DNA from: Cenarchaeum sp.
Lineage (GTDB): Archaea > Thermoproteota > Nitrososphaeria > Nitrososphaerales > Nitrosopumilaceae
Assembly: GCA_963693095.2 (NCBI GenBank)
Contig: OY843768.1
Span: 1,824,001 to 1,888,000 of the forward strand
Length of the DNA: 64,000 nucleotides
Direction: 5' to 3'
Shown: positions 3,388 through 23,129 of the stretch, in pieces
Numbering within the stretch: position 1 is the first letter of the stretch
Layout of the letters: every line of letters begins with the position of its first letter
The notes under the pieces: generated by a model
Database searches by the model: none
Told to the model about the DNA's origin: nothing
Seen by the model: the letters and a program-made list of their open reading frames with translations, nothing else
Position numbers and translations under genes: made by a program

Positions 3388-3555
3388 AATGCCTAGGCAT
3401 AATACTAATAAATCTGCCGCTTGGTGCTACATATAATCTATGGCTGAAACACCACGCACAGCTCACACGGTGGCTTTTCGCCGGATCGGGTCATACAACA
3501 TAGATTATACATAGGAAAAGTTTGCTGTTGCCTCTACACGTACAACCAAATGCTC

Positions 3556-4248
3556 TCACGTGCTGATTGCATATTTGTCAAGTTCGGTTCTTGATTTTGA
3601 AACTTGCGGATAACATTGTGCAACCAGACTCCAGTAGCGTTTTGAATGATTTCTAATTTTTATGTGACATAGCTCGTGCACAATTACATAATCTATGAGG
3701 TGTCGTGGAAGTGCAAGAAGTTTTGCATTTAGGTTGATAGTGTGGTTTTTAGTTGCGCTACCCCATCGACTTTTATGTTTTTTAATATTGATCTGACTTG
3801 GTTTTATTCCAATTTTCTTGCTGATTATGGATGTTCTTTGTGGGAGATATGTTTGTGCTTTTTTATAAATCCAATCTTGGTAGTATTGTTCGATCAATCG
3901 TGATGTAATTTTATTCTTTGATGTTCTATACATAAATTGTCTGTTTTTAAATTCAAACATATCTTCTCCAGCACAAATGTGTATGGGATATTGATGTCCA
4001 AGATATGATTTAAATTTGATAGATCCTTGTTGGTTTTTGTCTAAGCTATTTTGTATTGTTTTGTATTTTTTTGTAATGCGTGGATTCAGCTTCACGATCA
4101 TATCTCTAATCTCACGTTCAGATTTCGTCGCCGGGACTATAACACGTATTTCATTATGGCTTATCTGAACCTCTGATGTCATTTTGCGTTTGGTCTTTAT
4201 AATTGTGCATTTGACCATACGGTTGTTTAAGTTAATGCTATTGCGCAT
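3556..4248 (-). CDS. SprT/YgjP-like (DUF45, M48-like) zinc metalloprotease accompanying type I RM
   Basis: KSRWGS...INLN..L and IDYVIVHELCH...NHS..YW motifs; overlaps the hsdR stop, a common arrangement. Confidence 0.85.
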   Translation of the reverse strand: MRNSINLNNRMVKCTIIKTKRKMTSEVQISHNEIRVIVPATKSEREIRDMIVKLNPRITKKYKTIQNSLDKNQQGSIKFKSYLGHQYPIHICAGEDMFEFKNRQFMYRTSKNKITSRLIEQYYQDWIYKKAQTYLPQRTSIISKKIGIKPSQINIKKHKSRWGSATKNHTINLNAKLLALPRHLIDYVIVHELCHIKIRNHSKRYWSLVAQCYPQVSKSRTELDKYAIST

Positions 4249-7222
4249 AGTGATTTTTCACCAAATCTCTTATTTTCTCTAACGCGGAATCTATGTCTGT
4301 GCCAACTTGTTTCTCTTTTTGAAGCATTTCGTAAATGTCTTTTTGGATATCTTTATCAATTGTGGGTTTGTCTGGCCAATCGATAATTTGCGTATAGGGG
4401 ATTAGTTGTTCAAACAGCTTTATTGATAGATTAACACTTGCTTCTTTTCCCACGATTGGCATCATCACATTGTATATTGCAAATTCGAATGGTGTTGCTT
4501 CATAACTTCCAAACACGTCTTTGATCACTTTTTCACGGTTCACAGCATCGTTGTAAATGTCGACAAGTTCATCTAAATATAGCTCTAAATTTTCTATTCT
4601 GCGCATATTTTCATCTCTGATGATCTTTTCTAATCGTTCTTTTAGTGATTCAGCATATGTCGGATCTGTAGCCCATATTTCTTTAATCACTATTCTAATC
4701 CTATTTTTTAATAGTGCTGCTCGAGCAGCTTTAGATTCAATTTTATTATTTATAATATCTAGAAAATGTTTGTTTATTATCTGTTGCTGATTAATCAAAA
4801 TCTCTATATCTCCCGCCACAATGTGTTTATTAATTATATCTTTAATCTTTTCTCCATACAATTTCATATAGACGTCATGTCTTCCATAATACGTTGCAAG
4901 CCAACGAAGGCATCTTGCCATGAGTCTCCAGTTATCAATATAAGAAATAGCATTTTTATCAGGCAATGCAGCATTTAAAATGTTTAAAAATTTTCGAAAA
5001 TCGCTTTCAAACTTGGCTCTTTTTTCTGAATTTTCAAATGCTATTATGACAGTATTATGATTTTTGTAGTTAATTTTTTCTAGATGTTTCATTGCTATTT
5101 TACAGGCCACATCTAGATCTGCATATATCTTGCCAAGTGGCACAAGCGCATCAACGATATCCATACTATCAAAAGCTAGAAATGCTTTGTGCAATTCTTG
5201 TGTTACTCCATAGTAATCAACTATTATACCATGAGTTTTTTCTGTTGTGTATGGCCGGTTTACTCTTGCTATTGCTTGTAGTAAGTTATGATCGCGCAAT
5301 CCTTTATCCAGATACAACGCCTGACAGATTGGCGCATCATATCCTACCAGCAACATATCCACAACAATCAAGATCTTAGTTGGGTCATCGGAACGCTTGA
5401 ATTTCTCTGCTGTTATTCCACACTCTTCTTTTGTTAGATGGTGCACATTCCAACTCTGCCCGTCTTGGTCGTATCCTTCATAATCGCTCATTATGATCGT
5501 GGATTTTGGAGAATTGGCTATGCTGTCTAACGCTTTTTTATATAATACCGCTGCAGCTCTTGACGATGTGACTAACATAGCTTTACACCCATTGGGTTTT
5601 ATGTATTCTGTATAGTGTTTAACTATATCATTCGCGATCATTTCTATGCGATGTGGTGCTTCGGCCAGTGAATTTTTTGTCACATATTTTTGTTTAACTA
5701 TTTTTCTTGTGTCTTCATCACAATCAGCAAAAACGTGTTCGAATAACTCGTCAATGTTATCATACCCGTCAACATACACTTTAGGCAAACGCCCGTCATA
5801 CGTTATGGGCAATGTTGTCTTGTCGGCCTGCGATTCTCTAAATCCATACTTGTCAATCAATGGTCCAAATATATCAAATGTGCTTTTATCTTGCCTATCA
5901 ATTGGGGTTCCCGTAAACGCATAAAATATTCCATTTGGTAACGATGCTCGCATATTTGCTGCCTTTATCCTAAATTGACTTCTGTGTGCTTCGTCTACGA
6001 GGCAGAGCACGCGTTCTTTAATGCAGATGCCTACACCGTCAAACTTATCAATAACCGTCATGATCGTCTTTCCTCTTGGGTTTTTGAGCAACTCTGCAAG
6101 ATCTTTTTTACTGGATGCTCTGTGTGGGTTGGCAAATCCATAATTTTTAAATGTGTTGGAAATCTGTCGATCTAGCTGGGTTCTATCAGTAATAACAACG
6201 ATTGGAATGTTTGCAAATTTTCGTTTTGCTAGTATTGCAAGCCAGACCATTGACAATGATTTTCCTGATCCTTGTGTGTGCCACACTACGCCTCCTTTGC
6301 TCTTATCGTGTGTGTGAATACGCTCAATCGCTTTTGTGACAGCTCGTAATTGTGGATATCTTGCCACAATTTTAATTTCTTTATTGTTTTTTGTATCATA
6401 CATTACGAAATTTTGTAGAGTGTGTAATAAAATACTTTTTGATAAAAGACTCCCAATCAAAATTTCCTGTTCTCTAGCTTGCCCATTTAATTCCTTTAGT
6501 TCATTTTTTGTATAAGGATATCCATCAGACCATGGCGTATAATGATTTATCTCCGTTTCAATCGTACCCACTCTGGCAATGTCTCCACAGGTTGCAACTA
6601 AGAGGTGATTATAGTAAAAAAGTTGTTTATGACCCTGTGTTGTATTTTGATACTTGCGTAAATTATCCATAAATGCCTTTTCAATTGGATCAGGTATTGA
6701 TGGTGCCTTACATTCTATAACTACCAGAGGAATTCCATTTACAAAAATGACAATATCTGGAAAAATGGAGCGTTTATACCCGTCTACTCTAAACTGATTT
6801 GTGACAAGGAAATTATTATTTTCTGGATTATCAAAATCAAAAAAGTTAATGCGTATTGATGTACTAACACCATTTGTTTTTCTCTTAATCGTGACGGGAA
6901 TTGTATCATTTGTTTGTGACCAACCTACTAGTTTTGCATGGATTTTACGATTTGTTGTTACTGGAGTATCTGATGATTTGTTTTCTTTAAGTTGTTTCAC
7001 CGCTTCATCAATTTCTTCGTCACTGATTCCGGGATTTAATTTTTCTAGTGCTGTATGTAAACGTGTATGCAATAACACATCTCGGTAGTCGATCCTTTCT
7101 TCCTTGTTCAGCTCTGATCTTGATTTATACTCGTAGCCCATTGCCACTAGTTGCCTTAGAGCTGGCAGCTCTACTAAGCTCCCCTCCTCGCCGCCATCGA
7201 CGTCATACTCTCCTTGAACCAC
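4238..7222 (-). CDS. hsdR: Type I restriction enzyme, restriction subunit
   Basis: PDIVIFVNGIPLVVIECK nuclease motif, HTQGSGKS Walker A, DEAHRSQ, FTGTP, LLQAIARVNR. Confidence 0.96.
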   Translation of the reverse strand: MVQGEYDVDGGEEGSLVELPALRQLVAMGYEYKSRSELNKEERIDYRDVLLHTRLHTALEKLNPGISDEEIDEAVKQLKENKSSDTPVTTNRKIHAKLVGWSQTNDTIPVTIKRKTNGVSTSIRINFFDFDNPENNNFLVTNQFRVDGYKRSIFPDIVIFVNGIPLVVIECKAPSIPDPIEKAFMDNLRKYQNTTQGHKQLFYYNHLLVATCGDIARVGTIETEINHYTPWSDGYPYTKNELKELNGQAREQEILIGSLLSKSILLHTLQNFVMYDTKNNKEIKIVARYPQLRAVTKAIERIHTHDKSKGGVVWHTQGSGKSLSMVWLAILAKRKFANIPIVVITDRTQLDRQISNTFKNYGFANPHRASSKKDLAELLKNPRGKTIMTVIDKFDGVGICIKERVLCLVDEAHRSQFRIKAANMRASLPNGIFYAFTGTPIDRQDKSTFDIFGPLIDKYGFRESQADKTTLPITYDGRLPKVYVDGYDNIDELFEHVFADCDEDTRKIVKQKYVTKNSLAEAPHRIEMIANDIVKHYTEYIKPNGCKAMLVTSSRAAAVLYKKALDSIANSPKSTIIMSDYEGYDQDGQSWNVHHLTKEECGITAEKFKRSDDPTKILIVVDMLLVGYDAPICQALYLDKGLRDHNLLQAIARVNRPYTTEKTHGIIVDYYGVTQELHKAFLAFDSMDIVDALVPLGKIYADLDVACKIAMKHLEKINYKNHNTVIIAFENSEKRAKFESDFRKFLNILNAALPDKNAISYIDNWRLMARCLRWLATYYGRHDVYMKLYGEKIKDIINKHIVAGDIEILINQQQIINKHFLDIINNKIESKAARAALLKNRIRIVIKEIWATDPTYAESLKERLEKIIRDENMRRIENLELYLDELVDIYNDAVNREKVIKDVFGSYEATPFEFAIYNVMMPIVGKEASVNLSIKLFEQLIPYTQIIDWPDKPTIDKDIQKDIYEMLQKEKQVGTDIDSALEKIRDLVKNHYAQ

Positions 7223-7709
7223 GCATCAAACCACCACATTTTCCTATATTAAGACTCGGCCTTTATTCATAGTTAAATGTGTGCCTGCAATGCCAATTGT
7301 CTCGGACAAAGGGCGAAGATACGACTTTGGTAGTTATCGTTCACAACAGCAAGCGGTTATTCCGTTGAAGCGCCAGCAGTCTGCCCTGTGCTCGAGAAGG
7401 CTCAAAATGGTTCCTGCTGTCGTCCGAGGTTTGGCGATTGCTCGAAGCACCAGATCTGCCGTAGGGCGTATGGGTGGATATTTCAGGATCGTGGCTTGCT
7501 GTCCGGCCAAACACTGTTCCTAACCTGAGACACCCTGTATTCGATATTGGGGGTATGTTGTGGATGTGTGCTACGCCAACTGTCCATTAGTACGTCGTTA
7601 GTTTTACCACACACCACTACACATAATACGCCGTTTGTTCGGCTTCCCCTGGGGCTTATTTAGTGACGGCAGTGTGATGTTTATAAAGAAGGGCTGTGGC
7701 GCTTGCGTC

Positions 7710-9191
7710 GTGAGCAAAGTCTCGTTAGACGATCTCCAACGTCATCTTTGGAAAGCTGCTGATATATTACGTGGTTCTCTTGACGCATCAGAGTTTCGTC
7801 AACCTATAATGACGATTTTGTTTTTAAAACGGCTTAACGACCAATTTGAAGAAAATATTGATTTATTGATCGCAAAGGGAAAATCCAAAAAAGATGCCAT
7901 GAAACATTTCAATCACAAGTTTTTTGTTCCGAGCAGTGCTCGTTGGGAAACGCTTGCTTCGGCCACATCTAATATTGGAGCTGTGATTAACAAGGCATGC
8001 AAAGACATAGAATCTAAAAATTCTAATCTTAAGGGAGTGTTATCAAATATTGATTATGCAGATCATAGAAAATATTCTAATACAAATCTTGCCCATCTTA
8101 TATCTCATTTCAATGAACCTCGTTTACGTAATGCTGATCTTGAAAAAGAAGATATTTTTGGAGATGCTTATGAATATCTATTAGAACAATTTGCCGATGC
8201 TACAAAAAAGAGAGGTGGTGAGTTTTTTACTCCACGAGAAGTGGTAAAGTTATTAGTCAACCTAGTTGATCCTAAAGAACGAATGAGAATTTGTGATCCT
8301 ACATGTGGTTCTGGCGGGATGCTTATATTATCAAGACGTTATGTTGAAAAACATGGTGGTAATCCGCGCAACATAACTTTACATGGTCAAGAATCTAACC
8401 ACAGCAATTTATCTATGTGTAAAATGAATATGGTTTTACATGGCATTGCCGATTTCAGAATTGAACATGGTGACGTTTTGACTGATCCTCAATTACTTAA
8501 ACATAACAAACTTGATACGTATCATAAAGTATTGGCGAATTTTCCATTTTCTATGGATTGGCCTCACACAATGCCTGATCCATATGGACGATTCAAATAT
8601 GGGCGCCCTCCTGCAAAAAATAAAGCTGATTTTGCTTTTATTCAACATATGCTCTCCCAGTTACGCTCTGACGGACAGGCTGCAATTATCTGTTCACAGG
8701 GAGTTCTTTTTCGAAGTGGTGTTGAAAAACAAATTAGATCTGGTATGATTAACGATGATATTATTGAGGGCGTCATAGCATTACCTGAAAAACTATTTTT
8801 TGGTACCGGGATTCCGGCCTGTGTATTATTGTTAAATAAAGCAAAGCCGAAACGACATAAACATACGGTTATTTTCATTTCTGCCACAGATGATCGTCTT
8901 GAAGAATCCACTAGGAACAAGCTCCGTCCTCAAGATATTATAAAAATTGTTAATGCTTATAATAATTATATTGACATTGATCGCTACTGTCATATTGCCG
9001 ATCTGGCCGAAATTCAAGATAATGATTATAATCTAAATGTGCCCAGATATGTTGATACTACACCACCTGAAACTCCAGTTGACATTCAAACCGTTATTAA
9101 TAAATTACATCAATTAAAACATCAACGTGCTAAACTTGAATCTAAAACTATTGATGATTTACGTATGCTGAAATTTAAAATCTCAAAGTGA
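7710..9191 (+). CDS. hsdM: Type I restriction-modification methyltransferase subunit
   Basis: LWKAADILRG N-terminal domain, GEFFTP, DPTCGSGG (motif I), NFPF (motif IV). Start moved to GTG 7710, downstream of TTTATAAA at about 7681. Confidence 0.95.
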   Translation: MSKVSLDDLQRHLWKAADILRGSLDASEFRQPIMTILFLKRLNDQFEENIDLLIAKGKSKKDAMKHFNHKFFVPSSARWETLASATSNIGAVINKACKDIESKNSNLKGVLSNIDYADHRKYSNTNLAHLISHFNEPRLRNADLEKEDIFGDAYEYLLEQFADATKKRGGEFFTPREVVKLLVNLVDPKERMRICDPTCGSGGMLILSRRYVEKHGGNPRNITLHGQESNHSNLSMCKMNMVLHGIADFRIEHGDVLTDPQLLKHNKLDTYHKVLANFPFSMDWPHTMPDPYGRFKYGRPPAKNKADFAFIQHMLSQLRSDGQAAIICSQGVLFRSGVEKQIRSGMINDDIIEGVIALPEKLFFGTGIPACVLLLNKAKPKRHKHTVIFISATDDRLEESTRNKLRPQDIIKIVNAYNNYIDIDRYCHIADLAEIQDNDYNLNVPRYVDTTPPETPVDIQTVINKLHQLKHQRAKLESKTIDDLRMLKFKISK

Positions 9192-9198
9192 TGTGTTT

Positions 9199-10404
9199 AT
9201 GCTTACATCTGATATTTCAATTTGGCCTTCATTTCCGCTTTCTGCAGTGTGTAAAGTAAATACAGACACTCGTACACCTTCGTCAATTTACGTAGGAATT
9301 GAACATATTATTCCCAACACTAATAGCCTCAACGGTTATGGAAATATAGCGAATTTTAAAACTTCTCGCATTTTTCAATCAGGTAATCTGCTATATGCTA
9401 AACTTGGACCGGCATCTAATAAAATCTGGCTTGCAAATCACAGTGGGCATTGCTCCACTGATATTATTCCTCTCTCCCTCATATCAAAATTGTTTGTTCC
9501 TAAATTTTTGTTATATGTTCTTTCTCACACACGTTTTATTCATCATGCTATTTCAACATCATCTGGCACAATCATGCCACGAACTAGTTGGAATAATATT
9601 AAAAATTTTCATATTCCTGCCCCTCCAATTCAAGAACAACGTCGCATCGCGTCAATTCTGGCTAATATTGACGCACTAATCGAGAACGTGGAGGAAACTA
9701 TGTCAAGCTATGGAAAACTGAAACAAGGTTTGATGCAGCAGTTATTCACAGTGGGTGTAGGTCATTCACAATATCAGACAGTACGTGTTCAGTTTAGCAA
9801 ACAATCAACAATTCCAAAATCTTGGATTATAGAATCATTATCGTCATTCGGAAAAATTATTGGAGGCGGAACGCCCAGTACAAAAAATAAAGAATATTGG
9901 AACGGTGACGTATTATGGGCCACTCCTTCGGATATTACTGAATTAAAATCAGTATTTATAAACAACACAAAAAGAACAATTACAGAAAAAGGACTGAAAA
10001 AGAGTGCGGCAAAGCTTCTCCCCCCACATTCAATATTAATAACAACACGAGCGACAATTGGGGCGATGGCCATCAATACAAGACCAATGGCCACTAATCA
10101 GGGATTTCACAGCATATGCTGCAATTCACATTACGTACCGTCATTTATATTTTATTTAATAATGCACCATAATTCAAAATTATTAAGATATGCAGACGGA
10201 ACAACATTTTTAGAAGTGGGAAAAACTGATCTTGAAAAAATCAGAATTGCGTTACCACCAAAAAAAGCAGAACAGCGCAAGATTGCGTCAATTCTGTCAG
10301 GAGTTGATGCAATATTAGAAAATTATTGTTCATACAAGAACGAATTAGAACAACTTAAACAAGGGCTCATGCAACAGCTCCTTACCGGCAAAATGCGAAT
10401 ATAA
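9199..10404 (+). CDS. hsdS: Type I specificity subunit, co-transcribed with hsdM (TRD-a + TRD-b)
   Basis: Two TRDs each followed by conserved EQRRIASIL / EQRKIASIL and LKQGLMQQL(F/L)T helices; directly follows hsdM. Confidence 0.93.
   Translation: MLTSDISIWPSFPLSAVCKVNTDTRTPSSIYVGIEHIIPNTNSLNGYGNIANFKTSRIFQSGNLLYAKLGPASNKIWLANHSGHCSTDIIPLSLISKLFVPKFLLYVLSHTRFIHHAISTSSGTIMPRTSWNNIKNFHIPAPPIQEQRRIASILANIDALIENVEETMSSYGKLKQGLMQQLFTVGVGHSQYQTVRVQFSKQSTIPKSWIIESLSSFGKIIGGGTPSTKNKEYWNGDVLWATPSDITELKSVFINNTKRTITEKGLKKSAAKLLPPHSILITTRATIGAMAINTRPMATNQGFHSICCNSHYVPSFIFYLIMHHNSKLLRYADGTTFLEVGKTDLEKIRIALPPKKAEQRKIASILSGVDAILENYCSYKNELEQLKQGLMQQLLTGKMRI
9649..9750 (+). repeat. 102-bp inverted repeat, left copy (central conserved region of hsdS)
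   Basis: Reads as the exact reverse complement of 13078-13179 (gcgtcaattctggctaat...gcagttattcaca). Confidence 0.93.
10267..10300 (+). repeat. Short inverted repeat (30-34 bp) in the distal conserved region of hsdS
   Basis: gcagaacagcgcaagattgcgtcaattctgtcag is the reverse complement of 11451-11484 (1 mismatch); its first 30 bp are the reverse complement of 13168-13197. Confidence 0.9.
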
Positions 10405-10406
10405 CT

Positions 10407-11336
10407 TTAAATTTCTAACGAATGCATTACTTTTCTAAATTCTTGGAAACACTGGTCAATAGTGGGTGTTAGATATATGCCATCAAGGCCATTTTTATGC
10501 CCCATTAATTTTTCAGCAATGTTATAATTGACTTGATTATCAAGTTTTAACGTGGTGTTAAAAAATTTACGAAAACCATGATCAACTTGAACATCATAAC
10601 GCAGTTTATTTTTAATTCTTTTAACTGCGCTTTTATTGACATGACGTGCTATTACTGATCGAGCCCCTGACCATTGTAATGGTCGTACATCATGTACTTT
10701 CTTCATACTAAATAAATTACGAAACAGGGGAGACGCGTTAGTCAGATTTTCTCCATGCCTAACACGTTCAGCAACATAACAACGTAGTGCCGTTGTAGCT
10801 TGAGGAGTTAAAAATGACCAATATTCATCAACCGTCCCTGCATAATTTGTTATGCCCATACAACCCTCTGGCATTTTGATAGTGTGACCAAATTGTAATG
10901 GGTGATCAAAGATACCAATTCTGACTCCTGTTGACGCAAGAAATAAAATTAAAGCTCTATCCCTACTGTTCGTAGCCGTATTCATAATTTGTTGAATTTC
11001 AGAACGAGTCCAGCATCGTAATTTGATTGGCTTAAGTTTTGATGGATACATTTTATGAATAAGATCCCAATCAAGTTGAATCTGATTCATGACAAAAAAA
11101 TGTTTAAGGCCTAAAAATTTAGTTGGCAATGAATTTGGATTTATTGTATTTTTTAAATAAATTAAGTAATCTTCGACATAAATCTGCAGTTGTTTATTTT
11201 GAATTGTTATTAATTCATCGCTGTGTTTTATATTAATAAATGACATAAATGATTTTAGATGAGACACATAATTATGTTTTGTATATTTTGACTTTATAGA
11301 CTCTTCAAACCGCATCCAGCTTCGTTGTCTTGACAT
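10407..11336 (-). CDS. Tyrosine recombinase/integrase, putative hsdS invertase
   Basis: Catalytic residues present: STGVRIG (R), HGFRK (HxxR), LMGH, GIYL (Y); lies between inverted hsdS copies. Confidence 0.9.
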   Translation of the reverse strand: MSRQRSWMRFEESIKSKYTKHNYVSHLKSFMSFINIKHSDELITIQNKQLQIYVEDYLIYLKNTINPNSLPTKFLGLKHFFVMNQIQLDWDLIHKMYPSKLKPIKLRCWTRSEIQQIMNTATNSRDRALILFLASTGVRIGIFDHPLQFGHTIKMPEGCMGITNYAGTVDEYWSFLTPQATTALRCYVAERVRHGENLTNASPLFRNLFSMKKVHDVRPLQWSGARSVIARHVNKSAVKRIKNKLRYDVQVDHGFRKFFNTTLKLDNQVNYNIAEKLMGHKNGLDGIYLTPTIDQCFQEFRKVMHSLEI

Positions 11337-11586
11337 TTCTAAATTCCTTTTGTTCGAATTAATATTTTTAGTAATATGTTAAAAAATATAGTCATTAATA
11401 CTAATTTCTATTGCTAAAAATATTCATTTTATTAAGATATGACGCAATTTCTGACAGAATTGACGCAATCTTGCGCTGGTCTGCTAAAGGCGGAACAAGA
11501 ATTTTCAATTTTGAAAATTGTTTGGCATTAATATTGGGTTGTACTCCTTGAGTATGCTCTGATTTAACCCATGACCAATACATATA

Positions 11587-12691
11587 TACTCACGAGCTAA
11601 AGTTCGTGTGACCTTCCACGACCTTCCTGTTCAGGTATGCGTAGATGTTCAGGTTGAACCGCTTGGTCCTGAGGTACTCGCCGACCGCGATCCTCAGCTC
11701 GTCCAGGGTTCGTGGTTGCCCCGGGACCCTGACGTCCCTCTTGAGTATGCGCCACGTCCCCTCGATGGCGCTTAGCTGCGGGGATCCCACCGGCAGCTCG
11801 ATGAGCTTGATCTCGCCGTTGGCGCGCAGCAGGTTCTTGACCGCCCCCGCGCGGTGCTGGGGAGCCCTGTCGACGATGACGGCGATCTTGCCGAACTTCC
11901 CGTGCAGCTCCGCAAGGTACTGCGCGAACGTGTCCGCGTTGAACTTGTCGCGCGTCCGGAACGCCTGCCGCCCGTCCTCGGCGATCGCCCCGTACACGAC
12001 GATCCGCTCGTGGCTCCCGGTGTACGGCTCGTAGACGGGCACCGTGCGCGGCGTCCAGTGCGTCGCCATGCCCCCGGCGTCGTTCACGATGATCGACTCG
12101 TCCTGCACCAGCATCGTGTATCCCGCGCGCGCCAGGCGTGGCGCCGCCCCCGCAAGGCGCCGCTGCCAGCTGCGGACGGCGGACGCGCTCGCCCTGTTGA
12201 CGTGGGCCTTTCGCGGCCTCTTGCGCGAGAGGCCGAACTCGCGCATGAGCCTCCTCACGCTGGCTATGTGGAACAGTGTCCCCGCCGCCCCGGCGATCCT
12301 GTCGCGGACCGCGGCCGGGGTCGTGGGGGATCCCGACGCGTCGGCGAGGATCCCGTCGAGCGCCGTTCGCGGCACGGCCAGCGGCCTCCCGGAGCGCGGG
12401 AGGTCGCGGAGGGCGGGAAGCCCGCCCTCCCGGTACCGCGCAACCCACTTGCCGACCCACCCCGGGCACCGCATCAGCGTGTCCGCCGTGTCCTCGTGCG
12501 TCATGCCCATGTTGACCACGCAGTGCACGGCGAGCATCCTGTCCCTCACGTGCCCGCTCTTCTCGCTGTGGTGCGCGTCCCTCAGCTCCTCCCGCTTCCG
12601 GTCGTCCATGCCCTGGCGCGGGAGGGGGCGATCAATATAGCTGCGGGGTCGGGGAAACTTGATCATCTATACGAACTTTAGCTCGTGAGTA
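11587..12691 (-). mobile_element. IS630-family insertion sequence (about 1.1 kb)
   Basis: Perfect 21-bp terminal inverted repeats (tactcacgagctaaagttcgt 11587-11607; acgaactttagctcgtgagta 12671-12691), TA target duplication (11585-86, 12692-93), sharp GC contrast with the AT-rich flanks. Confidence 0.95.
11590..12666 (-). CDS. IS630-family transposase
   Basis: N-terminal HTH (W..RYREGG..AL.D.PRSGRP) and DDE triad QDES / VDRA / AIEGTW, in a single frame. Real start may be the ATG of MDDRKREEL. Confidence 0.93.
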   Translation of the reverse strand: MIKFPRPRSYIDRPLPRQGMDDRKREELRDAHHSEKSGHVRDRMLAVHCVVNMGMTHEDTADTLMRCPGWVGKWVARYREGGLPALRDLPRSGRPLAVPRTALDGILADASGSPTTPAAVRDRIAGAAGTLFHIASVRRLMREFGLSRKRPRKAHVNRASASAVRSWQRRLAGAAPRLARAGYTMLVQDESIIVNDAGGMATHWTPRTVPVYEPYTGSHERIVVYGAIAEDGRQAFRTRDKFNADTFAQYLAELHGKFGKIAVIVDRAPQHRAGAVKNLLRANGEIKLIELPVGSPQLSAIEGTWRILKRDVRVPGQPRTLDELRIAVGEYLRTKRFNLNIYAYLNRKVVEGHTNFSS

Positions 12692-13659
12692 TAGCTATGT
12701 GTGTATTGTTCAAGAAATCTTGGTTCCATTTTTTGAGGATTGATTTGAAATCTAATTAAATAACTAGCAAATATGCAAACGCCAAATTTTTCTTTAAACA
12801 ACAACGTTCTTCCAACACTTCCCGTTCTTGCAAATAGTAAATCGTTATGTTTTAGAACATATTTTTCATTACCTGTCAATTTTGTAGATACCTTACTCTC
12901 ATCACTAAGAGCTCCCTCATCGTTTATGTCTGTAATTCGAATATATCTGGGCAAATTAATGTTATATGGCATTGCCGGGTCAGAAACTCCATACTGTGAT
13001 TTCCCAATAGTGAGTTCTGATAACTGCGCGGTCTTCCATTGGACTGTTTTCTGGTAGTTTGAATGATCCACACCCATTGTGAATAACTGCTGCATCAAAC
13101 CTTGTTTCAGTTTTCCATAGCTTGACATAGTTTCCTCCACGTTCTCGATTAGTGCGTCAATATTAGCCAGAATTGACGCAATCTTGCGCTGTTCTGCTAA
13201 AGGCGGAACAAGAATTTTCAATTTTGAAAATTGTTTGGCATTAATATTGGGTTGTACTCCTTGAGTATGCTCTGATTTAACCCATGACCAATACATATAG
13301 CTATGTGTGTATTGTTCAAGAAATCTTGGTTCCATTTTTTGAGGATTGATTTGAAATCTAATTAAATAACTAGCAAATATGCAAACGCCAAATTTTTCTT
13401 TAAACAACAACGTTCTTCCAACACTTCCCGTTCTTGCAAATAGTAAATCGTTATGTTTTAGAACATACTTTTCATTACCTGTCAATTTTGTAGATACCTT
13501 ACTCTCATCACTAAGAGCTCCCTCATCGTTTATGTCTGTAATTCGAATATATCTGGGCAAATTAATGTTATATGGCATTGCAGGGTCAGAAACTCCATAC
13601 TGTGATTTCCCAATAGTGAGTTCTGATAACTGCGCGGTCTTCCATTGGACTGTTTTCTG
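12692..13659 (-). repeat. Direct repeat of a whole TRD (606-bp period) inside the second hsdS
   Basis: QKTVQWKTAQL...YTHSY is encoded twice; the second copy continues at 11455-11586 beyond the IS. Only a few point differences were seen. Confidence 0.92.
13078..13197 (-). repeat. Right copies of the hsdS inverted repeats (102 bp at 13078-13179; 30 bp at 13168-13197)
   Basis: Reverse complement matches 9649-9750 and 10267-10296. Confidence 0.93.
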
Positions 13660-13812
13660 ATATCGATTTCTTATTTGTTTTTTTATGCGCGGCACTTGTC
13701 GTTTGTTAGGCTGTTGGGACACCATCTTGTAACTTTCAACCCTCGACTCTAATATGCTAATATTAACTTATACTGATGCGCAAAATTTGTTTGGTGATCC
13801 TTCTAAATCTTG

Positions 13813-14387
13813 CTAAAAGTCATCTACTTTACGTACAATTTGCACACCAGAGTAAGAAGAATGCTTGTGAACGATGCCCCTAGTTGCGCCCAAGTATAGA
13901 GAGGCCATGCCATGATTGAGGTGCGCCCTGGGGTTCTCGGGGTTTATGCGAATCGCCACCTTGGCGTTCTTGACGGCCTCCTCGGCTCTGTCCACCGCGC
14001 TGAGGATCACTGCGCGATCAGAGTGCCCATCATCATTGTCGCCGTCCAGCTCGATTGCGTGCCCCGTGGCCTCAGGTGCCTCGGCGTTGCGCCCAAGATT
14101 AGAGGGCACGCCCGAGATAGGGGTGCAAGTTGTGCTCTCCGGATCTATCTCGATTCTGCGCCTGTACTCCCCGACTGCCTCCTCGCGCCGACCGCGCATG
14201 AGCAGCGCCGTCCCCCTCCTAGAATGGACACTCGCGCCTCCCTGCCCAGCTCGATCGCGCGATCAAGTGCGCCAATGGCCTCCTCACAGCGACCGAACTC
14301 GAGGAGGATCGTGCCCCTGCAATGGTGCGCCTCGGCGACGTTCGCGTGTTTTGCGAGGGCCATGCCCATGACATAGTGACTCTCCAT
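13813..14387 (-). pseudogene. Frameshifted TPR gene remnant, homologous to the C-terminal half of the TPR gene at 18909-20162
   Basis: AEAHHCRGTILLEFGRCEEAIGALDRAIELG and DGHSDRAVIL..VDRAEEAVKNAKVAIRINPENP are split over several frames; similarity ends near 13890 at the AT-rich junction. Confidence 0.85.
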
Positions 14388-14556
14388 GTAACCGCGTCCT
14401 TTGTAATGCTTTACCTCTTGCTTCTGCGCAGCACCTCGGCCTTGTCTAGGCGGTAGACCATATTGCCTGGTTCTCTTGCAAGTTGGCGATCGATATGCCA
14501 GAGTTCGTCATCATCCATTAGGCGTATTATGCTGGTTTCAATGTTACCTGCGCCGT

Positions 14557-15753
14557 CTACCTGCGCCTCGTTCTCGGCCGTGGGGTGTCTGTACTTATTA
14601 CCTCCATCATCGGATCGCTCTCAATGGAATGTGCAAACGAGTCACACGCCTCAGACTCACGTCCCAGTTTTGCCAACGCCACGCCCTTGATATAACATGC
14701 CCGCGCATACTCCATCCGTATGTTGTCATATGGTCCCCATCGCATATAGCTCTCATCGAGCCTGTTTTCGCCTTCTAGCGCCCGCACGCAATCGTCTAGC
14801 GCCTCATCATATTGTCCAAGATTAATGAGCGCATAGCATCTATCGAGAGAAAAACTAAATTCGTCATCATCATCTGTGTATCGCCACACCTCTGCTTCAA
14901 AGCTTGCGCGTGCGGCGCTGTGGTTTCCCTGCGTGTGCAGCCTGACTCCTTCTCTCATGCCCTTAAAAATGGCTGATATGACTATCGCTGGATACTTGGC
15001 ATACACGCGATTTGCTACCGTCTTGTCTGAGGACAGTTCAGCATACATATGACGAAGCTCCCTGGGCAAATTAGGTCGTGAATCCTGTAGTGACATGCTC
15101 ACGTAACCCGGGTGTGTGCCGTTACGCAGATCTTCTAGCACTATGTCACACAGGGATTCTGGCCTCCATTCACCCCCCACCTCACTCGTATGTGACTGAT
15201 GATCCCACTGTGATTCCCCCTCCCACGTTCTCTCGTATATGATATCTAGCTCGCATGAGTGACGTACCGCCCAATCCATGGCATGTAGGTGGCCTCCCTT
15301 CCTTGACCTTCCCGCAATGTAGCACATTTGAGTCTCGATATTTCCTGGTGCGATCTTGAGCGCTTTCCCGGCCATTTCTAAAGCTAGCTCACGTTTCTCA
15401 GATACTGATAATGGCGCTGCATATTCGTCTCCATATTCGTCTGCACCATAGAATTCTTCTTGAGACGTTGTATGCTCCTCACCATCCAGGTAAATCCTGG
15501 CGGCCAGCTCGTATGGAGCAGCAATGTCGGGGTTTAGCTTTATCGCATCTTCACACGCCTTGATGGCCACAATATATTCCCCGTGCCAGCGTGCAACCTC
15601 TGCCATGTCTAGATGGGCAAACACATTTTTGGGATTTCTTGAAATTTCGTCCTTGCATAGCTTGAAGTCATCTTCCCACCCGTTGTAACTCACAAAGCCC
15701 CACGCATTTTGGTTAATGCCCCGCATAACTGCCAAATCGCCTTCCAGCTCCAT
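14557..15753 (-). CDS. Divergent TPR-containing protein, probably frameshifted near its 3' end
   Basis: TPR-like segments (AIKACEDAIKLNPD, ALINLGQYDEALDDC, YIKGVALAKLGR). A TPR-like reading continues in another frame from about 14610 to 14411 (DDGGNKYRH...EPGNMVYRLDKAEVLRR). Confidence 0.7.
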   Translation of the reverse strand: MELEGDLAVMRGINQNAWGFVSYNGWEDDFKLCKDEISRNPKNVFAHLDMAEVARWHGEYIVAIKACEDAIKLNPDIAAPYELAARIYLDGEEHTTSQEEFYGADEYGDEYAAPLSVSEKRELALEMAGKALKIAPGNIETQMCYIAGRSRKGGHLHAMDWAVRHSCELDIIYERTWEGESQWDHQSHTSEVGGEWRPESLCDIVLEDLRNGTHPGYVSMSLQDSRPNLPRELRHMYAELSSDKTVANRVYAKYPAIVISAIFKGMREGVRLHTQGNHSAARASFEAEVWRYTDDDDEFSFSLDRCYALINLGQYDEALDDCVRALEGENRLDESYMRWGPYDNIRMEYARACYIKGVALAKLGRESEACDSFAHSIESDPMMEVISTDTPRPRTRRR

Positions 15754-15794: not shown

Positions 15795-18700
15795 TTGCCC
15801 ACTACACAAAAGCTTCACAACATTTTGTCCACAATGCTTAACAATAACCACACACCATCCCAAACCATGACCCCGTGGTTCGGTCATGGATTTCTCGGAA
15901 AGCCAAAGCGCAAGTTCCTCAACGGCCAGCCGGATCCAGAGTATTGGGGGCCAGGATTCCATGAAAACCTCCGCGAGCCGCCGACTCGCAAGGGCGTCGT
16001 AGTCCACGAAATCTCACCAGTCCAGGACAGGTACTCTACGATACTCGCATCGGCCTCGCCACGCTCACTAGAGATAGTAAAGAATCCAGGAGACGAGGGA
16101 ATCCACATACTCGCGTCGGCCGCACCCGATGACGAGTCATATCCGGCCGAGACTGGCCATGACTGCACGCCAGTGGATGCGGCAGCACCAAAATGGATAC
16201 ATGACGAACGTGCGCGCGCATTTGACGTAGAGCTCACAACACAGCTAAACTTTGCGCCAGTCACCCCGCCAGCCCACGCGCTAAACATGCTCGCGCGAAC
16301 CATCGCCCCCAGGGTGTCAGACGGCATGTGGATACTGGCAGTCTTTGAGAACCGTACTGACATACTCGCGAGGCTAGCGCTACGTGCGCATGACGCAATA
16401 TCAGAGGCGCAGGAAATGGAGGGCGACATGGGCCTGACGGCGCGCACGCTAGAGCCCCACTATGCGGCGCGCGCCGGCTCGCCGCTAGCGGCCCTCTCGG
16501 TCAGGGGCGCGTTCGTGTCTGACTCGCCGGCGGCCATACTAGACTCACTAGACGCCACATTTGGCGCCATATCCATAGAGTGCGACACGCTCACCACGTG
16601 CTCCTATGACACTAAACGCTTCATCCCGTGGCTCGAGTCGCGCCAGCTTGCATCCGAGGGCGCATACGATTTACTTGACCAAAACTGCGCAATGTGGAAG
16701 GATCCCCGCCTTGGCTTTGGGCGCGACATGACCCCAATCCTGGTCCTCACGCCATCCGAGCTCTCTGCCCTCCTGCGCATCCCAGACGATCCGGCACTCG
16801 ACATTCGGTACATGCGGCGCAGGCGCGGGGGCGCAAAGGAGGACGTTCTTGGCCACGACCTCGCCTCAAACGACTATTCGCGCCTCACGGTCTCGAGTGC
16901 CTCGATATCGCCCGAGCACATGCTGGCCCACACGTACCTTCTTGGCGCAACGGGCACGGGCAAGACGAGCCTCATGCGCTCATTTGCGCACCACATCAGC
17001 ACGCCAAAGCAGGGCTACCTCCCCCCCGCGCTCATCATCATCGACGTAAAGGACGATGACGGACCGGCGTATTTCACGCAGCTAGACCCCGAGGTGATCG
17101 CCTCGGGCCGCGTGAGATACATTGACATAAACCACACCGACTTTGCGATAAACCCCCTCGAGCTGCCGCCGCACACAGAGTCCACGCGCGACCTAGTCGT
17201 CTCGCGCAAGGTGGGCCAGGTCGCCTCGTTCCTAAAGGAGGTCTACAGCCAGCGTACCCTCATGGTCCAAGTCGAGCGCCTGATCAGGCTCCTCCTCACG
17301 CACCTCTACTCGCGCTCGTCCTCGCCCACGATGGCCGACCTTTACAACATCATCACGACGAACCTCAATGACCCGACGGCGGCGGCCAGGCGCATGGCGA
17401 CGGCCTCGCCCGAGCTCTCACAAGCCCTCTCCTCGCTAGCAAAGATGCCGCGAGACTCGTGGATACCGCTCATCAACAGGATCGAGCCGTTCGCAGTCGA
17501 CGCATACATGAAAAAGAGGTTCTCGGTGCGCCACGGCACAGTCGACTTTGCAAAGATGCTAGAGCCCGGCCAGATCACGATAATTCGCGCATCAGAGGCC
17601 GAGACGCCCCAGCACGCGCACCCAATAATACCCACGATTATATCGCTTGGGATATGGAACGCGCTGCTCGCGCGCGCCGAGTCTCGAGCCGAGCGCACGC
17701 CTGTCATGCTCTTTCTTGACGAGTTCCACATGATGCGCGACGTCACGCTCCTAAAGTCAATGCTCTCGCGCGGGCGTTCACTGGGCCTGGGCCTGGTCCT
17801 CGCGCACCAAAACCTCTCACAGGTCGACCGGTCGCTCCTTGACACGATAATGGGCAACACGTCAACGCACATACACGGCAGGGTCCTGGGGGTCGACGCG
17901 CGCACGATCGCAACGGTGATGGATCCGGCCCATGCGGCCGAGCTCACAGACCAGATCAGCGGCCTGCCAGACCACTCGTTTCTCATAAGCAGGGTCCCGC
18001 CCGCCGGCGCCGAGCGCGCGCCACCGGTGCGATTTGAGGCCCACGCCCCGCCGCCGTGCGTCATGGATCCTGCCCAGCTAGAGGCGTTCCAGGAGAAAAT
18101 GTCCGAGCTCCACCAGCCCGACCGCACTGCTGACTCTACGCCGCTTGACGCGTGGAGGTCAGAGCTCCTCGTCGAGCTGCCCACCCGGCTCGAGTGGCAC
18201 ATCATCATCGCGATGCGCCACGCCGGCTCTAGCACCGTGCCGCTAGCAAAGGGCGCGGTCCTCGCGGGCCTCATCAGGGAGCGCCACGCCGTCTCTAGCG
18301 CACTCTCCTCGATGGTGCGGCGCGGACTGGTCCAAAGGGTCTCATCAGTCAGGTGCGGCAGCGAGGAGCGCCCGACGCACGCGCTCACCGAGGCCTGCAA
18401 AAAGATGTACCTGCCCGAGTCCTTTGGCTCGATCGGAACAGCAAAGGGCATCGAGGAGGCAGCCAGGGCGGCCTTTGAGCACCATGTCTCACTGGGCCAC
18501 TTTGTCACAGTCGCCTCGCAGGGCAGGACGATCGACTCAAAGAACACAGTCGACATGATAGCGTATGACTATGAGACTGACAGCGCGCGCAGCGTCGAGG
18601 TCGAGTCTATAACGGAGGTAAAGAGCAACCCCGAGCACGTCATATTCAACATGACAAAGTGGGAGGACATGGGCTTTGTCGGCTGCGACACATGGTCTGC

Positions 18701-18830
18701 CAACCCCGCCGTCGTGAGCCTGCGCGAGAGGGTTCCCGAGCCGACGCGCATGGCAGTCACGTGCCATGTCCTGCAGGACGGCGAGTGGACAAGCCGCACG
18801 GCGGTCCAGGAAAAGATTGGGGGGACGTGA
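15795..18830 (+). CDS. HerA/VirB4/VirD4-like (FtsK-HerA superfamily) ATPase with C-terminal wHTH and PD-(D/E)XK-like region
   Basis: HTYLLGATGTGKT (Walker A), IIIDVK, INPLE, LFLDEFH (Walker B), RGRSLGLGLVLAHQ (arginine finger region), MGNT; tail has LSSMVRRGLV (wHTH-like) and VDMIAY...SVEVES. Start codon uncertain. Confidence 0.82.
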   Translation: MPTTQKLHNILSTMLNNNHTPSQTMTPWFGHGFLGKPKRKFLNGQPDPEYWGPGFHENLREPPTRKGVVVHEISPVQDRYSTILASASPRSLEIVKNPGDEGIHILASAAPDDESYPAETGHDCTPVDAAAPKWIHDERARAFDVELTTQLNFAPVTPPAHALNMLARTIAPRVSDGMWILAVFENRTDILARLALRAHDAISEAQEMEGDMGLTARTLEPHYAARAGSPLAALSVRGAFVSDSPAAILDSLDATFGAISIECDTLTTCSYDTKRFIPWLESRQLASEGAYDLLDQNCAMWKDPRLGFGRDMTPILVLTPSELSALLRIPDDPALDIRYMRRRRGGAKEDVLGHDLASNDYSRLTVSSASISPEHMLAHTYLLGATGTGKTSLMRSFAHHISTPKQGYLPPALIIIDVKDDDGPAYFTQLDPEVIASGRVRYIDINHTDFAINPLELPPHTESTRDLVVSRKVGQVASFLKEVYSQRTLMVQVERLIRLLLTHLYSRSSSPTMADLYNIITTNLNDPTAAARRMATASPELSQALSSLAKMPRDSWIPLINRIEPFAVDAYMKKRFSVRHGTVDFAKMLEPGQITIIRASEAETPQHAHPIIPTIISLGIWNALLARAESRAERTPVMLFLDEFHMMRDVTLLKSMLSRGRSLGLGLVLAHQNLSQVDRSLLDTIMGNTSTHIHGRVLGVDARTIATVMDPAHAAELTDQISGLPDHSFLISRVPPAGAERAPPVRFEAHAPPPCVMDPAQLEAFQEKMSELHQPDRTADSTPLDAWRSELLVELPTRLEWHIIIAMRHAGSSTVPLAKGAVLAGLIRERHAVSSALSSMVRRGLVQRVSSVRCGSEERPTHALTEACKKMYLPESFGSIGTAKGIEEAARAAFEHHVSLGHFVTVASQGRTIDSKNTVDMIAYDYETDSARSVEVESITEVKSNPEHVIFNMTKWEDMGFVGCDTWSANPAVVSLRERVPEPTRMAVTCHVLQDGEWTSRTAVQEKIGGT

Positions 18831-18908: not shown

Positions 18909-20162
18909 CTATTCCCGCACCGCCCCATAGCGCCTTGCAATCTCTTCCTGCGCCCTTTGCGCCCCCGGCACCCTCTTGAAGGCCTCCTCGGCCTCACCGG
19001 GGCGACCAAGCACCATTAGCGCTGCACCCATGCCCAGGTGGCCGGCGACGATGTCAGGGTCCAGCTCGACTGCGCGCTCGTATGCGCCCAGGGCCTCCTC
19101 GTTGCGCCCAAGCAGGGTGAGGGCCAGGCCATGACTGGCGTGCGCCATGGGATTCTCGGGGTTTAGGCGAATCGCCACGCTTGCGCTCTTGACGGCCTCC
19201 TCGGACCTGTCCATCGAGTTGAGGATCATTGCGCGATTAGAGTGACCGTCACCATTGTCGCCGTCCAGCTCGATCGCGCGCTCTGTGACCTCTAGGGCCT
19301 CGGCATTGCGCCCAAGGTCAAAGAGGGCACGCCCGAGATGGATGTACGAGTTGTACTCTTTGGGATCCAGCTCGATTGCGCGCCTGTGCGCCTCGGCTCC
19401 CTCCTCGCGCCGAGCGCGCAAGAGCAGCGCCGTCCCCCTCCTCGAGTGGACACTCGCGTCTCGCTGGCCAAGCTCGATCGCGCGATCAAGGGCATCGATG
19501 GCCTCCTCACAGCGGCCGGACTCGAGGAGGATCATGCCCCTGCAGCTGTGCGCCTCGGCGGCGTTTTCGTGTTTTGCGATAAACGTGTCGAGTCCTGCGA
19601 GCGCCTCCTCGCTGCGTCCGGCCCTGTGCAGCGCCTCGGCGTGACACTTTTGCGCCAGCGCCGAGTCAGGCGTCATGGCCACCGCCTCGCCTGCTGCGGC
19701 CACTGACTCTTCATGGCGTCCCGATCCTGCCAGGATGATCGACTTCATCTCGAGCGCAAAGTCGTCATCAGGCTCCAGCTCCACTGCGTGGCTCACCGCG
19801 GCCAGTGACTCCTCGCGGCGCTCAAGCGCGCAGAGCGCCAGCGAACGGAGCGTGTGCGCCCTGGCAGAGCCGGCCCTCACCCTTACGGCGCGCTCGGCCA
19901 CCTCTAGGCCATCATTGAGCCGCCCCGCCTTGAGATGGGCCATGCCGAGCCTGAACATAGAGTCAATGTCCCCAGAGTCAAGCTCGATTGCCCTCTTCCA
20001 GTACACTATGGAATCCTCGTCACGGTTCAGCGCGCATAGGGCGTAGCCCATGCGCCTTTGTGCGACTGTGTCATCGGGCCTCTCGCGAACCTCCCGCTCG
20101 CACTCCTCTAGTGGCATCGGCTCGTCGTCCTTGCCTGCCGAGCCCCCGCTTCCCGAGCCCAT
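18909..20162 (-). CDS. TPR array protein A (about 417 aa)
   Basis: Tandem 34-aa repeats (A...G..L..LGR.EEA....RAIEL.P); start reassigned to MGSGS downstream of the TATA box. Confidence 0.92.
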   Translation of the reverse strand: MGSGSGGSAGKDDEPMPLEECEREVRERPDDTVAQRRMGYALCALNRDEDSIVYWKRAIELDSGDIDSMFRLGMAHLKAGRLNDGLEVAERAVRVRAGSARAHTLRSLALCALERREESLAAVSHAVELEPDDDFALEMKSIILAGSGRHEESVAAAGEAVAMTPDSALAQKCHAEALHRAGRSEEALAGLDTFIAKHENAAEAHSCRGMILLESGRCEEAIDALDRAIELGQRDASVHSRRGTALLLRARREEGAEAHRRAIELDPKEYNSYIHLGRALFDLGRNAEALEVTERAIELDGDNGDGHSNRAMILNSMDRSEEAVKSASVAIRLNPENPMAHASHGLALTLLGRNEEALGAYERAVELDPDIVAGHLGMGAALMVLGRPGEAEEAFKRVPGAQRAQEEIARRYGAVRE

Positions 20163-20365: not shown

Positions 20366-20397
20366 CAGAACCCCGCCATCCCAAAGCGCCCTCGCGC

Positions 20398-23050: not shown

Positions 23051-23129
23051 GTCTCAGGCTGCCAGGGGCTGCTCCTATAATTTTTGCCCTGCAGTCGGGC
23101 ACGGTTGCCCTATACGGAGAGCAGGGGCG

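Follow-up and report, generated by a model that had tools for sequence, protein, structure and literature searches.

A candidate recombinase-driven hsdS inversion locus with a conserved palindromic site in a Nitrosopumilaceae archaeon

Programmed inversion of hsdS, the gene that sets specificity in restriction-modification (RM) systems of type I, has been the subject of much study in bacterial pathogens, in which it resets the methylome and alters which foreign DNA is cut. The locus described here lies in archaeal DNA, a 64,000-nucleotide stretch of Cenarchaeum sp. (assembly GCA_963693095.2, contig OY843768.1, positions 1,824,001 to 1,888,000) referred to throughout as the window, and consists of hsdR, hsdM and two oppositely oriented hsdS genes with a tyrosine recombinase gene between them. 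Comparison with related loci indicates that it is probably a recombinase-driven hsdS inversion switch carried on a horizontally acquired island of low G+C content (GC). Sequence comparison places it as a thaumarchaeal form of the inverting hsdS locus, with its own recombinase clade and a defined site, damaged in this genome by an insertion sequence (IS).

Described hsdS inversion systems and the archaeal locus

In the hsd locus of Mycoplasma pulmonis, two full-length inverted hsdS genes recombine at short sites within their conserved regions, by means of the HvsR recombinase, to give chimeric genes; hsdR and hsdM lie between the hsdS genes, and the recombinase is encoded elsewhere and serves other loci too. 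The window differs in being archaeal and in having its recombinase gene between the two hsdS genes, inside one of the putative invertible segments. In Streptococcus pneumoniae, the extra hsdS copies of the ivr locus are partial and silent, whereas each hsdS gene of the window is full-length and begins at a start of its own, and one functional tail would be passed between the two. The pneumococcal locus (SpnD39III/ivr, also named cod, with the recombinase CreX/IvrR/PsrA) otherwise resembles the window, as the main text of Atack 2020 (PMC7394358) describes it: a type I hsdRMS system with an inverted extra hsdS, inverted repeats within the hsdS coding sequence and a tyrosine recombinase of the locus, in which in-frame domain exchange produces several specificities. 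Inversion is proven in that system and predicted in this one. The recombinase of the window falls in a thaumarchaeal clade, and the curated model nearest to it is that of archaeal XerA; the pneumococcal locus is bacterial.

An earlier note, made from the letters of the window, had reported hsdM and hsdS on the plus strand, a tyrosine recombinase, and another hsdS on the opposite strand, all of which are borne out by Pfam matches and translations. An intact 994-amino-acid (aa) open reading frame (ORF) on the minus strand (positions 4238-7222) encodes HsdR, with Pfam matches to HSDR_N (122.5 bits), SWI2_SNF2 (225 bits) and a T1R_D3-like domain (81.4 bits). The N6-methyladenine (m6A) methyltransferase subunit is encoded by hsdM on the plus strand (7635-9191; N6_Mtase 348 bits, HsdM_N 95 bits, TIGR00497 264.4 bits against a cut-off of 242.75), the true start codon of which may lie some codons inside this ORF. 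The first specificity gene, hsdS1 (9193-10404, plus strand), starts 2 nt past the hsdM stop and encodes a first target recognition domain (TRD-a), a central conserved region, a second and different domain (TRD-b) and a full C-terminal tail, with two Methylase_S stretches. Together the products comprise an HsdR nuclease with a superfamily 2 (SF2) motor, a gamma-class HsdM, and HsdS with two recognition domains, as in a type I RM system, and the only Methylase_S matches in the genome are those of this locus.

The second specificity gene, hsdS2, is on the minus strand and is split by an IS630-family insertion sequence of 1105 bp (11587-12691, minus strand), which has terminal inverted repeats, a TA duplication and a DDE_3/IS630 transposase (11590-12666, minus strand; NF033545 146 bits against a cut-off of 100). 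The ends of the IS are 21-nt perfect inverted repeats (23 nt including TA), the target duplication is present at 11585-11586 and 12692-12693, and the GC of the element is 0.681 compared with about 0.37 for the island. The 5′ piece of hsdS2 (12692-13725, minus strand; Methylase_S 76.6 bits) has its own ATG, a first TRD-c, a central conserved region and most of a second TRD-c, while the 3′ piece (11401-11586, minus strand; Methylase_S 37.7 bits) holds the end of the second TRD-c, the last recombination site and a truncated tail, and is 96% identical to 13158-13299. Because the minus-strand hsdS is split by the IS, a 60-aa ORF at 11401-11583 is recognized as the 3′ end of hsdS2. When the IS and one TA are removed in silico, hsdS2 becomes a single 405-aa ORF with two Methylase_S stretches. 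The same recognition domain is present twice in it, the copies agreeing at 164 of 165 residues with 4 mismatches over 495 nt, a duplication seen also as a 300-nt direct repeat, 12690-12989 matching 13296-13595 at 99%. Whereas hsdS1 has two different recognition domains and a complete tail, the tail of hsdS2 is truncated, with its stop 22 codons past the start of the last site. Both the IS split and the duplicated TRD-c were overlooked in the earlier note.

The second TRD-c is judged to be destroyed by the IS, and the insertion is taken to be very recent because the element is 100% identical to seven other copies, for a total of eight full-length copies in the genome. The other seven are located on contig G000:C1 at 226519, 731047, 754361, 937010, 1791256, 1943329 and 1948721. 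The genome also has 11 copies of an IS relative with 68-69% identity, and two fragments, many of them clustered at 1.63-1.95 Mb, and the IS630 family appears to be active in it.

The two hsdS genes share an exact 102-bp inverted repeat (9649-9750, plus strand, and 13078-13179, minus strand), in which identity ends one base further on each side. Shorter inverted repeats pair 10267-10300 with 11451-11484 (1 mismatch in 34) and 10267-10296 with 13168-13197 (no mismatches in 30), and the repeats lie in register inside the hsdS reading frames. Direct comparison confirmed these coordinates, which had been given in the earlier note together with the claim that one core is present at all four junctions. 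This claim also holds: the core GCGTCAATTCTG occurs exactly four times in the window, at 9649 (plus strand), 10285 (plus strand), 11455-11466 (minus strand) and 13168-13179 (minus strand), against an expectation of 0.01, and none of 100 shuffles reached four.

Each core belongs to a longer site of 29 bp. Site A (9646-9674, plus strand), in the central conserved region of hsdS1, has the form ATCGCGTCAAT-10 nt-ATTGACGC, with one left-arm mismatch to the consensus of the recombinase clade described below, and site B (10282-10310, plus strand), in the C-terminal conserved region of hsdS1, agrees with that consensus. On the minus strand, site C (11441-11469), in the C-terminal conserved region of hsdS2, shares its left arm and nine of ten spacer bases with site B and has a degenerate right arm, and site D (13154-13182), in the central conserved region of hsdS2, has consensus arms and a spacer identical to that of site A. 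All four sites encode I-A-S-I-L in one codon phase, and every exchange between them would therefore be in frame. When the four conserved regions are aligned they form a mosaic, in which the closest partner changes exactly at the core; site D equals site B over 18 nt upstream of the core and site A over 90 nt downstream of it. This pattern fits past crossovers at the core.

The recombinase clade and its palindromic site

The recombinase gene (10407-11336, minus strand; 309 aa) is located between sites B and C, within the smaller of the two segments predicted to invert. The score of its product against Pfam PF00589 (Phage_integrase) is 27.7 bits, barely over the cut-off of 27.1, and an alignment with 27 homologues reveals that R139, H253, R256, H280 and Y288 are invariant, forming the pattern R...H-x-x-R...H...Y. 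The ORF is intact, and none of the 59 columns invariant among these homologues has changed in it. An AlphaFold2 (AF2) model (pLDDT 79.1) has a two-domain fold, core-binding plus catalytic, that is matched by Foldseek at probability 1.00 to XerA, Cre, IntI, lambda Int and XerH (E 1e-10 for XerA 5hxy), and a profile of the 27 homologues gives weak matches to XerA structures. Archaeal XerA (PDB 5hxy, 4a8e) thus offers both the best solved fold and the nearest curated model, XerA_Arch (NF040815), but the protein scores 53.5 bits against this model, far below its equivalog cut-off of 220, and identification as XerA was rejected. In a search of the genome with NF040815 the recombinase is the sole match, at 47.4 bits. 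The gene is absent from all four same-genus genomes searched (72-99% complete) and is therefore not a housekeeping orthologue of the chromosome-dimer resolvase. Searches of protein databases returned 276 relatives at E <= 0.001, the best 67% identical, with the relatives of 61-67% identity coming from short Logan or JGI (Joint Genome Institute) contigs. A single-protein search of genome contigs and metagenome contigs found no relatives, and an alignment-based scan of metagenome contigs with the closest homologues found distant relatives only, with at most 40% identity.

A scan of one genome per species identified 115 relatives, from which 80 loci were kept (designated by L numbers). Archaeal titles such as Nitrosopumilus, Nitrosopumilaceae, Thaumarchaeota and Nitrosotalea are attached to 79 of the 80. 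The remaining locus, L051, is a 3086-nt contig from a metagenome-assembled genome labelled Hyphomicrobiaceae that has a clade recombinase and an hsdS with the thaumarchaeal site, and it is probably a mis-binned archaeal contig. Profiles for HsdS, HsdM, HsdR and the recombinase were built by iteration on the ORFs of the loci and mapped back onto them. In a quick maximum-likelihood tree of 75 recombinases, drawn from the 80 genome-contig loci and the window, the window recombinase falls within a clade of 31 (SH-aLRT 99), where hsdS is found on both sides of the recombinase in 8 members, on one side in 14 and not within 3 kb in 5, the other 4 having short flanks. Outside the clade there are 44 rows, 20 of them without hsdS (flanks of at least 3 kb), 23 with short flanks and a single one linked to hsdS, this being the long-branch second recombinase of L040; 22 of the 23 hsdS-linked rows are inside the clade.

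The gene order of the window is not confined to it. Among the loci kept, the hsdS-recombinase-inverted hsdS arrangement, for which the earlier note had proposed a search of archaeal genomes, occurs as convergent hsdM-hsdS followed by recombinase and second hsdS on the opposite strand in L035, L040, L058 and L075; in L050 and L057 the hsdS-recombinase-inverted hsdS core is kept and hsdM is on the strand opposite to the adjacent hsdS. As in the window, the distal hsdS of related loci often stops just past the last site, and inverted repeats lie within the conserved regions. Adjacency to a tRNA gene was tried as a means of separating integrase-like from invertase-like relatives and did not discriminate, as only one of the 80 loci has a tRNA at most 1 kb from its recombinase (ARAGORN, which may miss intron-bearing archaeal tRNAs). 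L040 has, besides its hsdS-flanked recombinase, a second and very divergent tyrosine recombinase (13218-14096) at the island edge, 313 bp from a tRNA-Lys gene (14409-14484), and hsdM of this locus is divided between two frames.

The conserved regions of hsdS in this clade carry a 29-bp site composed of arms ATTG[C/A]RTCAAT and RTTGAYGC around a 10-nt spacer, encoding I-A-S-I-L-x-x-(V/I)-D-A. Across 13 recombinase-linked loci, 35 conserved regions encode IASIL, and their consensus is ATT GCR TCA ATY CTN NNN NNN RTT GAY GCA, in which the arms ATTGCRTCAAT and RTTGAYGC are mutual reverse complements and the ten bases of the spacer vary. Third codon positions within the arms are nearly invariant (ATT in 34 of 35, TCA in 35 of 35, GTT or ATT in 34 of 35), while the four codons upstream of the site display free synonymous variation. 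A second class of conserved region, K-I-E-S-I-F-x-x-I-D-A, is found in other loci of the clade and has the arms ATTGAATCAAT ... ATTGATGC, with one base changed. The strict site pattern occurs 28 times in sense within hsdS ORFs and once elsewhere in 899 kb, the lone outsider being an opposite-strand reading of the site of a fragment. With a looser pattern there are 64 readings within hsdS against three outside it in 877 kb; two of these three are both-strand readings of one site in L044, and the third is at a contig start beside an hsdS remnant. The L044 site (5220-5249) is an isolated full palindrome outside hsdS frames, about 1.8 kb upstream of the recombinase, and may be a relic of a lost hsdS copy. 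A word resembling a half-site, TTGC[GA]TCAAC, is present inside the recombinase gene of the window at 10939 (minus strand), where it covers codons L-A-S-T just before the catalytic arginine, and at about position 7398 in many loci (e.g., L032, L036, L040, L042 and L075); it may be a coincidence that arises from shared A-S codons.

The site tracks the recombinase clade. In a control set of 54 hsdS regions from 151 genomes of the class, with a clade recombinase defined by a profile score of at least 450, the looser pattern was found in 5 of 5 regions with such a recombinase and in 0 of 49 without. Forty-three of these 49 have an HsdS match by its own profile, and several are near more distant recombinases. 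The five positives are five loci of the first set, and the new information therefore lies in the negatives. Where the same IASIL peptide is encoded, recombinase-linked genes have ATTGCRTCAAT in 34 of 35 cases, the right arm in 33 of 35 and the serine codon TCA in 35 of 35, against 0 of 6 for each in unlinked genes. The six unlinked sequences use ATC, ATA or ATT, then GCT, GCC, GCG or GCA, then TCC, TCT or TCG, and end in D-S, D-E or D-N rather than D-A. The arms are thus judged not to be a by-product of the protein motif, because IASIL-coding genes without the recombinase match neither arm.

Rearrangement of such repeats might instead proceed by RadA-dependent homologous recombination or gene conversion, with the neighbouring recombinase as no catalyst. 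The repeat shared by sites A and D is of sufficient length for this, and recombination at pneumococcal spnIII is stated, in a passage of PMC6620402, to be independent of all known site-specific recombinases. Homologous recombination would leave unexplained why palindromic arms at a fixed spacing are kept though the flanking codons are saturated with synonymous change, why the same arms occur in both conserved-region classes, IASIL...VDA and IESIF...IDA, and why the site follows the recombinase clade. We consider this explanation unlikely, and a site-specific role of the recombinase is preferred.

The spacers provide a further line of comparison. In the seven loci with four sites (L035, L040, L047, L050, L057, L075 and the window), the spacers of the central-region pair are identical in all seven, and those of the C-terminal pair have no differences in four loci and one in three. 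Central and C-terminal spacers differ from each other at 2-6 positions, and the between-locus median is 6 of 10. This pattern fits the product of a tyrosine recombinase that needs spacer homology, a requirement that would keep exchanges in register.

Proposed switching and the state of the locus

We infer that the recombinase encoded at the locus binds the four 29-bp sites and inverts the DNA between them, the common arms being recognized at every site and the spacer selecting the partner. Recombination of A with D, which are inverted and have identical spacers, would invert 9.66-13.17 kb and swap TRD-b with the second TRD-c. Recombination of B with C, whose spacers differ at one base in ten, would flip a 1.1-kb segment that holds the recombinase gene and the two tails, moving the sole complete C-terminal tail from hsdS1 to hsdS2. 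An intact locus could in this way produce four complete HsdS proteins (a-b, a-c, c-b and c-c), representing four methylation and restriction specificities. In the present state the expressed gene would be a-b, and c-b would arise after A x D exchange, read from the hsdS2 start. Since the IS lies in the second TRD-c, only a-b and c-b would remain complete, reducing the four combinations to two.

The earlier note had interpreted the locus as a candidate phase-variable type I RM shufflon. The architecture of an inverting hsdS locus is supported by the clade linkage, the site and the spacers, while phase variation is a prediction. Its proposal that inversion swaps TRD-b for the TRD-c copy fits sites A and D; the expected new specificity does not follow, as the swapped-in domain is disrupted by the IS and the hsdM-linked gene would be turned off. 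The exchange of C-terminal tails, which it also proposed, is retained in the present scheme with a larger part than that of a side effect, because each hsdS gene is full-length, with a start codon of its own, and there is only one complete tail, so that the position of the tail would decide which gene is complete.

Evidence of movement within the group comes from two Nitrosopumilus loci, L031 and L036, which share 99.3% identity across a 4.3-kb stretch that takes in hsdM. They place one recognition domain differently, first in the hsdS of one record and second in that of the other (L031 4266-5583, L036 5244-6416), with the breakpoints near conserved-region sites. The different positions of this domain indicate that recognition domains move in this group.

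Public sequencing runs were available as Logan contigs, four runs of one study having 0.94-0.98 of the words and one of another study 0.38. Over 8800-14000, contigs of the four runs end at 9678/9649, 9750/9721, 10295/10273 and 11478 and at the IS ends, and the left repeat arm, 9649-9750, forms a separate 102-nt contig at about double depth. Loose ends among those listed are found only at or beside the IS ends (11575-11585 and 12693) and beyond 13.9 kb.

Several points weigh against an active switch or against the readings on which it is built. The Logan contigs contain no joints, and as they end at every repeat they are uninformative on orientation, because inversion via an exact repeat longer than k=31 yields no new 31-mers. 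No pair of loci differing by a plain inversion was found in an all-against-all megablast of 84 loci. The tree is a quick one; among the 27 clade members whose flanks are adequate, 5 lack hsdS within 3 kb, and the end branch of the window recombinase is the longest in the clade, at 0.68. The same-peptide control is small (6 sites) and both of its sets consist of relatives, the counts being non-independent, and for this reason counts are given and no probability. The spacer match follows in part from the longer identical repeats around the central sites, and gene conversion could equally maintain identical spacers and long repeats. Transcription of hsdS2 from its own promoter is assumed, an AT-rich 87-bp stretch, judged by eye, being present upstream of its start. 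In this genome the IS interrupts hsdS2, and two sites depart from the consensus, site A by a mismatch in its left arm and site C by degeneration of its right arm. The arm defects, the IS and the long end branch fit a locus in decay.

It is possible, although not the explanation that we favour, that the locus is a frozen remnant, a switch in its donor lineage that undergoes no programmed switching here now and uses only hsdS1 (a-b). Of the three arm departures among 35 sites, two are those of sites A and C and the third belongs to a frameshifted fragment in L038, and the host GC is about 23 points above that of the island. The long recombinase branch and the split hsdS2 point in the same direction, and contigs of the four runs agree with the reference arrangement as far as they extend. 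However, the recombinase ORF is intact with its invariant columns kept, sites B and D agree with the consensus, and the 102-bp A/D repeat is exact, which would erode without recombination or conversion; the IS, identical to its seven other copies, is very recent. Under the preferred reading of a recombinase-driven switch, switching in this genome may have slowed or may already be dead, because sites A and C each deviate in one arm.

The island, its host and the archaeal setting

The window genome comprises 2.0 Mb in two contigs. Its small-subunit ribosomal RNA fits the archaeal Rfam model at 1457.6 bits and the bacterial one at 1098.5 bits, which upholds the archaeal label given in the earlier note, and the host is a thaumarchaeon from the family to which Cenarchaeum and Nitrosopumilus belong. 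The locus lies on an island of low GC at about 2200-13800, with a GC of 0.374 without the IS compared with 0.605 for 14001-64000; at the left edge, GC drops from 0.51 to 0.42-0.34 between 2000 and 4000. Genes on the island are ordered HARE-HTH protein, YgjP peptidase, hsdR, hsdM, hsdS1, recombinase and hsdS2. The HARE-HTH domain protein (2194-3387, minus strand; PF05066 35.4 bits) is at the left end, and the YgjP-like (M48-type) metallopeptidase gene (3556-4248, minus strand; PF01863 159 bits) is downstream of hsdR and overlaps its 3′ end. Like the recombinase, which is missing from the same-genus genomes searched, hsdS is absent from the sole complete same-genus genome of the class sample. 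By its composition and distribution the island is a recent, horizontally acquired type I RM island.

The foreign composition of the island and its absence from relatives would also suit a different role for the recombinase, that of the integrase of a cryptic integrated element, with the RM genes as cargo and the hsdS repeats reflecting similarity between paralogues. Thaumarchaeal elements commonly carry XerC/D-like integrases and type I RM systems, as the main text of Krupovic et al. 2019 (PMC6563490) relates, and the wider recombinase family is without hsdS linkage. Against this, the gene is internal, between two hsdS genes and away from the island edge. No direct repeats of at least 16 nt flanking the island were found (12-nt seed), and the only tRNA genes of the window are at 31.7 and 57.7 kb, the nearer being 18 kb from the right edge of the island and about 20 kb from the recombinase gene. 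The possibility raised in the earlier note, that the recombinase would prove to be an island integrase acting at a tRNA, accordingly finds no support. An integrase role would also not account for a palindromic site kept at synonymous positions only alongside the clade recombinase, nor for spacers that covary between partner sites, and in L040 a separate, tRNA-adjacent recombinase occupies the island edge. The integrase explanation appears quite improbable, and inversion of hsdS remains the preferred role.

The ancestry of the recombinase is a separate matter. The XerC/D-like integrases of thaumarchaeal elements belong to the same superfamily and the same phylum as the window recombinase (Krupovic et al. 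2019, PMC6563490), and the tree relatives that lack hsdS linkage may be such integrases. The hsdS-linked clade differs from element integrases in its position between specificity genes and in the conserved site inside these genes, and the window has neither attachment-site (att) repeats nor an adjacent tRNA. The putative hsdS invertase lineage is probably derived from thaumarchaeal mobile-element integrases. In the table of the top 20 arCOGs for the 74 elements of PMC6563490, type I S, M and R subunits are listed 11, 9 and 6 times, and the word 'inversion' is absent from the main text of that paper.

Adjoining the right side of the island, at 13813-15753 and 18909-29092 (minus strand), are at least seven genes for tetratricopeptide-repeat proteins (128-819 aa) with host-like GC. 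Among them, at 15795-18830 (plus strand), a 1011-aa protein matches TrwB/VirD4-type coupling proteins and HerA/DUF87 ATPases, and it may be a relic of a conjugative element.

Descriptions of comparable archaeal systems are scarce. The introduction of Huang 2020 (PMC7672463) notes archaeal species that have type I systems with multiple hsdS genes, while the word 'archaea' is absent from the main texts of Atack 2020 (PMC7394358) and Atack 2019/2020 FASEB J (PMC7383803). According to the portions of text available for the genome-wide surveys, the scan of Milman 2023 (PMC9881135) is limited to bacteria, Chanin 2023 (PMC10028968) reports 12 archaeal invertons from 42 data sets of Euryarchaeota and Crenarchaeota, and Sekulovic 2018 (PMC5903667) includes six archaea with no inversions; as far as these texts go, archaea have been left out, large surveys being bacteria-only or having very few archaeal data sets. 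In the text available of two reviews of archaeal RM (PMC10609329 and PMC11033074), neither 'recombinase' nor 'inversion' occurs, and that of PMC10609329 has no word beginning with 'inver'. Searches of the open literature turned up no archaeal example, and one for ammonia-oxidizing archaea with type I restriction and phase variation returned no paper. The statement in the earlier note that no characterised archaeal example was known agrees with these searches, although the supplements of Atack 2020, Huang 2020 and Chanin 2023 (Data S2, a list of archaeal invertons) may name archaeal loci.

These comparisons lead us to lean, with some reserve, towards a broader proposal: that the Nitrosopumilaceae have their own hsdS invertase lineage with a site of about 29 bp and pairing dictated by the spacer, which would be the first programmed inversion and epigenetic phase-variation system defined in Archaea and independent of the bacterial shufflons. 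The recombinase and site make a compact pair, the protein having 309 aa and the site 29 bp with a spacer that defines the partner, and if the proposal is correct this pair could serve as a tool of archaeal origin comparable to Cre/lox. The window itself illustrates the fate of such a system when moved into a high-GC host, where it was struck by a resident IS. Nitrosopumilus-type archaea are major marine nitrifiers and common sponge symbionts, and the system, if it acts as proposed, would belong to organisms that rank among the ocean's most abundant microbes. These archaea would then vary their restriction barrier and methylation within a clone, with consequences for virus-host dynamics, for gene flow and perhaps for gene regulation in this group.

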